Origin: Lama glama
Lineage: Eukaryota
Direction of reading: 5' to 3'
DNA: 64,000 nucleotides
NCBI GenBank assembly: GCA_028534125.1
Contig: CM052839.1
Coordinates: 7,254,001-7,318,000 of the forward strand
The notes below the pieces were generated by a model. That model made no database searches and was not told where the DNA came from. It saw only the letters and a program-made list of their open reading frames with translations. The translations under genes and the position numbers were made by a program. Positions 48,701 through 51,700 of the stretch are shown in pieces (within the stretch, counting starts at the first letter, position 1; each line of letters opens with the position of its first letter).

Positions 48701-51700
48701 GGGTCCAGTAAGATTTTGGAATAGTTAGGGGCCTATGTTTTTTTATAGTTGGAAGATTAGGTAGAATAAAGGGTCCCTGAGAACCAGAACGGTAAATTGG
48801 TAAATTTTAGGAGTGTCTATTTGTAGAGGGGTCGGAATAAGAGTATACTGTGGAAGCTGAAGTCCACAGAGAAACAGCTGGACAGGGAAGTTGATGGCTA
48901 AGAGGGTCTCCCCTCACCCCCTCTCTCCCATCGTGACGCTCACCCGCACTGCGCAGGCGCCGTCCCCCCCTCCTCCGGCCGCAGCCTCCAGTCGCCGCGG
49001 CCGCTGCAGCCCCCGCCCCTCTGCCCCTCCCCCTCCCCCAACCCCGCGACCCTTGCTCTCCCACCCACCCCCTCCCCTCAGCCCCCCTCCCCTTCTCCAT
49101 GTCGGCTCGGAACAGATTCGCCTCCATGTGTCTCTGCGTGGTACGTGCCGCGGTACGGGCTCCGGCCCCGCTCCCCTCTTCCCAGACCCCTCAAGTCTCA
49201 GGGTGCAAGCTTCAAGCGCTGTCGCTCTTCCTTCTGCTTGGCGCGGGGTCTCTGGGTTGCAGTGTCTCGGGGACAGGCTCAATGGGTCGCTCCTCTTGTG
49301 ATCATCCACTTTCACTCACACCCCTCTATTCTGGGGTACAAGCCTCAGTTCCAGGTCATTCTGGCAACTGGGGCTCCGGTGAGGAGAGGACCAAGGGGGA
49401 AAGAACAACAGCGACCCTCAGGCCTTTGACTTGTCCTATGTCTTAGTATATTGGGGGTTCAGACTTGGTCCCAATAGCATCCGGGCTGTCGCTGGCCAGG
49501 GCCCTGAGTCCCAGTAGGGTAAAAGAGGGGATCCTCCTTTTCTGCCAGTTGTCCTGTAATCTGGGGCTGAGAGGTGCTGACCCTGACCCCCACCTCCCAG
49601 TCTGCAGTTTCTGAATGACTCTCTCCCACCCTTACCCCTCCAGAGGTTCTTCCTTAGTACATTTACTTAGAAAATTTCCAGGGACTGAATATAGGCCCTA
49701 ACCTCCTTCAACCACATTCTGGGAACTTTGGTACCCTGTTCTGGTTCCCCATTTCCCTCACATTGTCTCCCAGGGAGGACAAGCCAGGTTCCTCAGTCCT
49801 AGACAACCCCCTCCATGGGGGTGGGGCAGGAGCAGTGTCTGCAGTCTCACTGTGATACAAATTTCCCTTCATTACCTCTGTAGAATAAACAATGAACTGT
49901 CCTTTCCCACGTTCCATTTTCTTTGTGTGCACCCTGACATTTCTTCATCAGATTCAGGAATTTTCTCTGTGAGGTAGGGTGAAGGTGGAGGGGCATTGGG
50001 TTCAAACTCTCCCCTAGAGTCCAAAACTCAAAGCTGCAACCCTTGGCTCTGCCTCAGTTATCACTTGGGGGAATTGGGGGCCTTGTGAAGTCAGAATGGA
50101 GAGCTGCATCTTCTCCTCCCTGGACCTTCCAGTTCTGGGGCCCTGGCCTTCAACTTTTGCCCTGTCCAAGCGGAAGACAACCTTTTCAGGGTGTGGATTG
50201 AACAGCTTCTTTCAGTTCATCAAATTCTGTTATCCAAGATGGCCCTGCTTTGAGGAGGATTATTTAGTTTAGACTTCCCCTAACTTCCCATCTTCTCCAC
50301 TCTTTGTGCTCATGGCATTGGAATCTGGAGCTTGAGAATCTCTCTCCAAGTCCATCTGCAAGGGCAGAAAATAGTGTATCTGGATGAGCCCCTCTTTTCT
50401 CTTTTTAAGGCTCTTCAAATGTATCAAGTTGCCCCTGGATCCCCGTTGTCTCTATGTCCTGGGTTTGACAGTCTTCGTATACCATTTTCCTCTCCCCATT
50501 CTCTTCCTGCGTCTTTAGCCACAGCCAAAGTTGAGTTACATTCTCAGCCTTGGTTCCTCTTCCTCAGAATTTTCAGAATCATACTCTGGTTTCAGGCATT
50601 GACCTTGATAAGCTTCCTCCAGTTCAATCCTGTAACTGTTGTCCTCCGAATGTTGAGGTGCTCTCAGCCTCCCAGATACTTCTTGAGAGGGAATCCTAAC
50701 TTCTCTTTTTACCTGTGTGTATTGGGGAGTGTGTTCTGTTTTCTCGTCTCCCTGGAGGGGAACCCTGCGTGTGGTGGCCTCCCCATCCTCCGCTGGTTGG
50801 GCCTGGAGTTGAGGAGGGTCTGCTTCTGTGGGGGCAGAGGCCGAGGTGGGAGGACCCAAGCAGGGCTGCTGCCCTTCACTGCTGTCTCCAGTTGCCCTTT
50901 TCCTCTCTCTCTGGTTCCCAGTTAATCTCATTTACTGGTGTCCCGATTAAGCTAGACCTTGAGGAGGCCCTTGAGATGGCAGGTGGGTAGTGAGGAAGGG
51001 AGTCAGGGCTCATTTTGGGTCTCTCACTCCAAAAGGCCGGAGAGAGACCAGGAATTCACTCTGAGGCTCCACCCTCTCCTGCAATGGGAGAAGCTGCTAC
51101 CCATCCTGCCCCCCTTCTGAGCCCTACTGCCTCTGGTCCTCCCCCTTCCACCCCGTCCTCCTTCTAGTATATCCGATTAGCTGACTGGGCTGTGGGTATT
51201 TAGAGAAGTGGGGTAGACTCCTGGGGTCCCTTTGCTGATTACTTGGGAGCCAGCAAAACCAGTGAAGGTAGAGCTGGATGGGTTTAGCTTTGTCCTGCCT
51301 AGGGGGGTGATGCCAAGTACCAGCTAGTGGAAGGACTTGACTGCAGTCTCTACCTGGGGCACCCAAGGTGCTGGAGGGCCATTCACTCCTAGGGTAGAGG
51401 CTGCAGTAGGGGGACTGTGGCAGTGAGGGTGGAATGGGGTGGGATAGACTGCAGAGCGGGAGCAGCGACTGGATGGAGGAGGGAGGTCACAACCTGGGGA
51501 GTGGGATTAGGGAAGGAGGAAGTGCGATGAATCGGTTGAGGGAAGCAAATAAGCTGGGGATGGATGTAGAGACGGTGGGGTGCACGTGTCCGAGGGGCTG
51601 GAGTCCTGGGATGGACGTGAAGGAACGGACGTTAGAGGAGGGAGTGTGCTGGGTAGAAGGCCAGGGTCCTAGGCTGGGAGGAGGAGGAGTTGGGGCATGG

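Follow-up and report, generated by a model that had tools for sequence, protein, structure and literature searches.

A conserved alternative first exon of DLG4 in the llama, with a candidate CpG-island promoter, predicts a third and probably S-palmitoylated PSD-95 N-terminus

The stretch of llama (Lama glama) DNA analysed here (64,000 nucleotides, hereafter the window) contains what is, on the comparison of sequences, an ancient and conserved alternative first exon of DLG4, the gene for PSD-95. The best explanation of the observations as a whole, which we hold with some confidence rather than firmly, is that of a conserved alternative first exon with its own CpG-island promoter and a two-cysteine start that is likely S-palmitoylated. 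The exon is the orthologue of unnamed predicted isoforms (X5, X7, X10 and others) that carry no attached function, and, since the same N-terminus and junction are already in predicted DLG4 records, the sequence itself is not new. A first-pass annotation of this DNA, which had proposed a palmitoylation-type first exon here, had guessed that the isoform might already be in databases, and this guess was right: it is present in the predicted models of many species. The coordinates are collected in Table 1.

Table 1. Features of the DLG4 region, with positions numbered along the window
Feature	Position	Strand	Evidence or remark
PSD-95beta (L27-type) exons, two visible	42983-43081, 43353-43394	+	tblastn 100% to camelid beta model P0068
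CpG island (small, intronic), candidate for an alternative promoter and first exon of DLG4	48930..49260		GC 0.71, CpG obs/exp 0.80
Half-CRE TGACG; its TGA is the in-frame stop 5' of the ORF	48934..48938	+	sequence scan
NRF1-type site GCGCCTGCGC	48951..48960	-	5 distinct sites of this type in the window
Single strict GC box	49013..49018	-	only one strict GC box present
DLG4 alternative first exon, 14-codon coding part	49099..49140	+	identical to residues 1-14 of DLG4 models P0072, P0073, P0096, P0287
Second in-frame ATG (MCLCV form)	49126..49128	+	start of models P0059, P0087, P0111, P0116
Main splice donor GTG|GTACGT, phase 0	49141..49146	+	40/277 fetched proteins end the exon there
Second donor in tandem (GCG|GTACGG, phase 0), adding VRAA if used	49153..49158	+	used by one lemur model, UniRef A0A2K6EZT0 (P0012)
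DLG4 common exon 2 with 2b extension	51935..52099	+	mostly N; visible tail 52064-52099, then GT
Strong-Kozak ATG (MEYEE), just upstream of PDZ1	55691..55693	+	664-aa models P0064, P0101 start there

DLG4 lies on the + strand, and its PDZ, SH3 and guanylate-kinase exons are found from ~56100 onwards (tblastn with a camelid beta model). Neither MDCLC nor KYRY was recovered in a six-frame scan of the window; blocks of N presumably cover the alpha first exon and the greater part of exon 2, and the alternative first exon sits 3' of the presumed alpha exon and 5' of exon 2. The start of exon 2 at 51935 was obtained by arithmetic from its visible tail, and a protein match in the own genome begins at exactly this position. 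The tail (52064-52099) is that of a 33-residue extension of exon 2, the 2b form, with a GT donor, and is identical to a camelid model. A gene on the - strand at about 40000-41600, which we take to be ACADVL, is arranged head-to-head with the DLG4 beta exons.

The reading frame of 14 codons that had been proposed to end exactly at the phase-0 donor GTG|GTACGT was confirmed at 49099-49140. Its ATG is the first in-frame ATG downstream of the in-frame TGA at 48934; the coordinate 48930, from which the exon had been drawn, marks promoter-like elements and not a known exon start. The CxCx|GTR site of this exon is unique on the + strand of 44500-51900, and a DNA search found the first-exon stretch to be single-copy in its own genome; a second genomic match (L002, 73% over 105 bases) was rejected as C/G-rich low-complexity sequence. 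The main donor at 49141 agrees with 6 of the 11 positions of the U1 consensus, a score shared by four of the five other DLG4 donors scored, while a second donor lying 12 nt 3' of it (49152/49153) matches at 5 of 11.

The evidence for splicing comes from gene models, which are mostly predicted and some of which may be projections of one another. From similarity searches and from look-ups among the cluster members listed, 277 DLG-cluster proteins were fetched (P0012-P0288), and none was dropped before the classes were counted. The motif C-x-C-[VM] stands directly before KYRY in 40 of the 277, a proportion that is not an abundance because two of the searches were seeded with this N-terminus and each cluster listing gave at most 15 members. 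Exactly 14 residues are present in 32 of these 40; four fish models extend 5' of the same 14, and four models are shortened to MCLCV. The other classes counted are alpha (58), beta (42), proteins ending in FGCK before exon 2 (36), other starts (35) and proteins without exon 2 (64). C11, C13 and position 14 (V/M) constituted the selection rule, and positions 1-9 were not selected on. The exact llama 14-mer followed by KYRY is found in human KAI2580984.1 and KAI4047496.1 (130 aa, partial), chinchilla XP_013377548.1, bat KAF6093319.1 and the marsupial records XP_051851841.1 and XP_074167837.1. The ORF and donor are conserved in that the same N-terminus and exon end recur in gene models of many species; the proposed join to KYRYQ is likewise present in those models, while KYRYQ itself is under N in the window.

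A search with the read-through ORF gave 11 matches among 380 candidates, namely ten unnamed ORFs read through from genomic DNA and one UniRef model from a lemur, which begins with this peptide. As judged from translations, all ten ORFs retain the first ATG and the donor, and nine retain the CRE/NRF1 stretch (the tenth begins at the ATG), a conservation that is partly by construction because these ORFs were found by similarity.

Orthologous 14-residue starts were found on DLG4 models of sharks and rays (MKRKAKLTSLCPCV), bichir, paddlefish, gar, bowfin, teleosts (MKGRTKLPSLCPCV), coelacanth, frogs (MKNKSRLKSVCLCV), newt, turtles, lizards (MKTKNRLSSMCLCV), marsupials and placentals, including human; no bird or crocodilian version was among the proteins fetched. 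The split between sharks and mammals is more than 400 million years old. The exon is much older than the first-pass annotation had supposed, since it occurs across the jawed-vertebrate groups of the fetched set, birds and crocodilians excepted. Among 19 distinct 14-mers, M1, K/R4 and L/F/I7 are each present in all 19, K/R6 in 18 and S9 in 17; acidic residues are absent, and positions 3, 5, 8, 10 and 12 vary. A fixed length combined with variation at these residues is the pattern of a coding exon. As to the identity of the gene, exon 2 of all 15 non-mammalian models tested (one record being labelled DLG2) resembles DLG4 more than it does either of the two paralogous exons of the own genome.

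One sceptical explanation of these records is that a chance ORF in a CpG island was spread through the databases by annotation transfer, and the case does consist of gene models rather than primary transcript data. However, the orthologues of fish, amphibians and reptiles, whose genomes were annotated independently, are divergent yet constrained, and so were not copied from a mammalian model. Moreover, an in-frame ATG followed by CxCx|GTR arises in just 0.05% of 2000 dinucleotide shuffles of the 331-bp stretch, a percentage that, like the other shuffle percentage in favour of the promoter given below, flatters the case because the patterns were picked after the sequence had been seen. A chance ORF is hardly credible, and the exon is highly likely to be a real, spliced one.

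For a paralogous exon, a degenerate 35-place pattern had no match within ~30 Mb of the two paralogous exon-2 loci; the pattern is stringent and would miss a diverged copy. Genome-wide it matched 64 places, most of them TG repeats, against 31 for the reversed control, and 30 of the 64 were fetched, two of which had an in-frame ATG 14 codons upstream: the own locus and an unrelated place (L022).

Two other kinds of first exon were encountered in DLG4. A PSD-93alpha2-like, Cys-bearing first exon ending SLMFGCK occurs in 36 of the 277 fetched proteins, all non-mammalian (P0034, P0042, P0050, P0107, P0223 and others). No match to it was found in the visible part of 44500-51900, where N blocks could hide one, and mammalian DLG4 may have lost this exon. 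Further downstream, 53182-53257 (+) matches another first exon, MFVSVWYAKKMGRRFISNVRKAKKQR, of shark, frog, lizard and turtle DLG4 models (tblastn E 5e-5, 64-kb window). This segment has an in-frame TGA upstream, an ATG at 53194 and a GT donor at 53258, which would be in phase 1, whereas the exon downstream starts in phase 0; it is likely the decayed relic of an ancient first exon.

To return to the exon at 49099, its translation would very probably begin at the first ATG. The second in-frame ATG, to which the first-pass annotation had drawn attention, is present at 49126, but the emphasis placed on an MCLCV start was not upheld: Met10 is found in 5 of the 19 distinct versions and Met1 in all of them, which makes the long form the likely ancestral product. 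Models of the MCLCV-KYRY form exist in camel (XP_064351230.1), cattle (XP_027375522.1), a tortoise and lacertid lizards; these are likely to be 5'-truncated or to represent a secondary start, and in mammals they may reflect thin read coverage of the exon.

Another possibility is that the mammalian exon is mainly a promoter and 5' leader, such that ribosomes would scan past both ATGs and start at MEYEE, giving a 664-residue form without the membrane anchor. Indeed, the Kozak context is weak at both 49099 and 49126 (T at -3 and T at +4) and strong at 55691, and 664-aa models do exist. The amino-acid-level conservation at fixed length across the jawed-vertebrate groups sampled, together with the identity of the 14-mer between marsupials and placentals, speaks against a leader, which we consider improbable, and for a coding exon.

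The CpG-rich, promoter-like segment that had been described was confirmed at 48930-49260, and this island likely drives its own DLG4 first exon as a candidate promoter. In the ~530 bp flanking it on either side, CpG obs/exp is 0.11 and 0.16. CpG islands are commonly defined by a length >=200 bp, GC >0.5 and CpG obs/exp >0.6; with 331 bp this one is short, exceeding these values and falling below a stricter 500-bp length rule. No TATA box was found in 48850-49100. The promoter elements previously named fared unequally: TGACG at 48934 and the NRF1-type site are present (TGCGCAGGCGC is located at 48950, and the site was named from what we take to be the NRF1 consensus), whereas the plural GC boxes came down to one strict box at 49013. 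The NRF1 motif appeared in 0.85% of 2000 local dinucleotide shuffles. The half-CRE (37% of shuffles) and the GC box (79%) are not above chance, and both were dropped as promoter evidence. All five NRF1-type sites of the window are in or beside CpG-rich stretches; the four others (13013, 13427, 23528 and 28731) all lie inside or next to CpG islands of neighbouring genes. DLG4 introns contain further CpG-rich stretches, 46600-47500 and 54300-54800, as possible extra promoters, the latter just 5' of the exons leading to the MEYEE start of the 664-aa form.

The peptide of the exon is not the PSD-95alpha N-terminus MDCLCIVTTK, and the alpha models form a separate class. Like alpha, it is encoded by a short coding first exon with a C-x-C pair and a phase-0 join to the KYRYQDED exon of DLG4. 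It differs from alpha in having a separate exon and island, 14 codons instead of 10, a basic leader ahead of the cysteines, cysteines two residues from KYRY (six in alpha) and a hydrophobic run shifted by one. The product would be four residues longer than PSD-95alpha, so that gels, and antibodies to the common body, would not separate the two.

The gamma isoform of PSD-95 is reportedly told apart by size, and such a distinction would not fit an isoform only four residues longer than alpha. Nevertheless, the exon may correspond to the published PSD-95gamma, the third mouse isoform found by Bence et al. (2005) to come from a separate promoter, as cited in the available text of PMC7198883 and PMC2694677; the searchable literature that names gamma does not give its exon sequence. 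The accessible parts of PMC6324823 and PMC6365469 count two N-terminal PSD-95 isoforms. The same design is known from DLG2 (PSD-93), which, according to the portion available of PMC6389146, has three Cys-bearing alpha first exons (alpha0, alpha1 and alpha2), several promoters each giving a Cys-bearing N-terminus; there the cysteines are at positions 3/5, 5/7 and 10/16, as against 11/13 here. In the literature searched, outside of which most subscription journals and supplements lie, no paper giving this peptide or exon was found; text matches to the peptide string were, as judged from the listing, unrelated strings, and the available text of a zebrafish preprint (10.1101/2022.03.18.484955) has nothing on the exon.

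The sequence suggests dual palmitoylation, on mixed motif evidence, and we consider it somewhat probable that Cys11 and Cys13 are palmitoylated. A Cys pair flanked on either side by basic residues, as found here, is typical of S-acylated segments. The net charge of residues 1-18 is +4, compared with -1 for alpha. According to the available text of PMC2156213, palmitoylation of PSD-95 requires an unbroken stretch of five hydrophobic residues that includes both cysteines, withstands a 6-residue insertion in front of them and is helped by KKYR; in alpha it is abolished by Leu4-to-Ser and weakened by Val7-to-Ser or Ala. M10-C11-L12-C13-V14, followed by KYR, agrees with the five-residue rule in all eight tetrapod versions, shifted by one residue from the alpha register, and the cysteines at 11/13 are displaced by 8 relative to alpha, the tolerated shift tested in PMC2156213 being 6. 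However, the rule fails in all eleven fish versions, in which P, S or T separates the two cysteines, and the equivalent of Val7 in the alpha register of the mammalian exon is Lys15. An amphipathic helix was dropped as an explanation, hydrophobic moments of 0.07-0.25 in five versions (0.18 for alpha) giving it no support.

These departures raise the question of whether the Cys pair of a conserved coding exon serves some other purpose, such as zinc or copper binding, S-nitrosylation or a disulfide, in a form that lacks a lipid anchor and may act against alpha. Zinc is bound by Cys-rich termini of the SAP102 type. The fish versions keep the pair while breaking the rule of PMC2156213, mammals have a lysine in place of Val7, and the Cys-rich SAP102 N-terminus is reported, in the available text of PMC6365469, not to be palmitoylated. 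On the other hand, the run of five hydrophobic residues with flanking basic residues is unbroken in tetrapods, and the rule, as described in the accessible part of PMC2156213, comes from work on a single mammalian sequence in COS cells. A role of the cysteines other than lipid anchoring seems unlikely to us, and S-acylation is preferred.

The second tandem donor, which the first-pass annotation had not mentioned, would restore the exact cysteine register of alpha (C-L-C-V-V, four residues to KYRY), and its product would satisfy the alpha rule in register. It is used by the lemur model P0012, which runs on to VVRAA, and a GT at the corresponding position can be deduced from the translated sequences of the related unnamed ORFs. 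However, this one model stands against 40, all non-mammalian models end at position 14, and the match to U1 is the weaker of the two (5 vs 6). The other extended primate model, P0013, runs on to VVR, and the window lacks a GT donor at the position where that exon would end, which suggests alignment artefacts. It is very improbable that the second donor is the main one, and the donor at 49141 is retained for what follows.

In the mechanism that we propose, the island would act as a TATA-less promoter for the exon, and translation would start at the first ATG, 49099. Met1 would then be removed and Ser2 N-acetylated in mammals, following a general rule for N-termini. By the splice from 49140 to common exon 2 found in gene models, the new start would replace the alpha start MDCLCIVTTK. 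The basic leader would dock electrostatically on the acidic membrane, where a ZDHHC enzyme would S-acylate Cys11 and Cys13, anchoring this form of PSD-95 at membranes. The isoform would be a minor share of total PSD-95.

In the available text of PMC6365469, alpha makes up ~90% of brain PSD-95, and there, as in the portion available of PMC8481135, calmodulin and alpha-actinin bind the first residues of alpha. The exon changes the first half of this binding segment (residues 1-13 in PMC6365469) and lacks K10 of alpha; since the segment is rewritten, the control of the isoform by calmodulin and alpha-actinin may differ.

PSD-95 sets the synaptic content of glutamate receptors through its palmitoylated N-terminus. 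The exon specifies an annotated but apparently uncharacterised third N-terminus of PSD-95, the conservation and function of which were not found in print; it would be a minor one, with a reasonable chance of being S-acylated at Cys11/13. A more tentative idea, which we put forward as speculation, is that of a third lipid-anchored PSD-95 N-terminus, as old as jawed vertebrates and with an NRF1/CRE-bearing promoter, whose rewritten calmodulin/alpha-actinin segment might create a pool of PSD-95 with a different calcium-dependent release, hidden until now by co-migration with alpha and by escape from alpha-specific mutations. If the third start is real, it would be invisible on gels and untouched by the C3/C5 mutations of alpha, and so could alter the reading of isoform-specific experiments; it would also be a small coding exon to consider in DLG4 patients.
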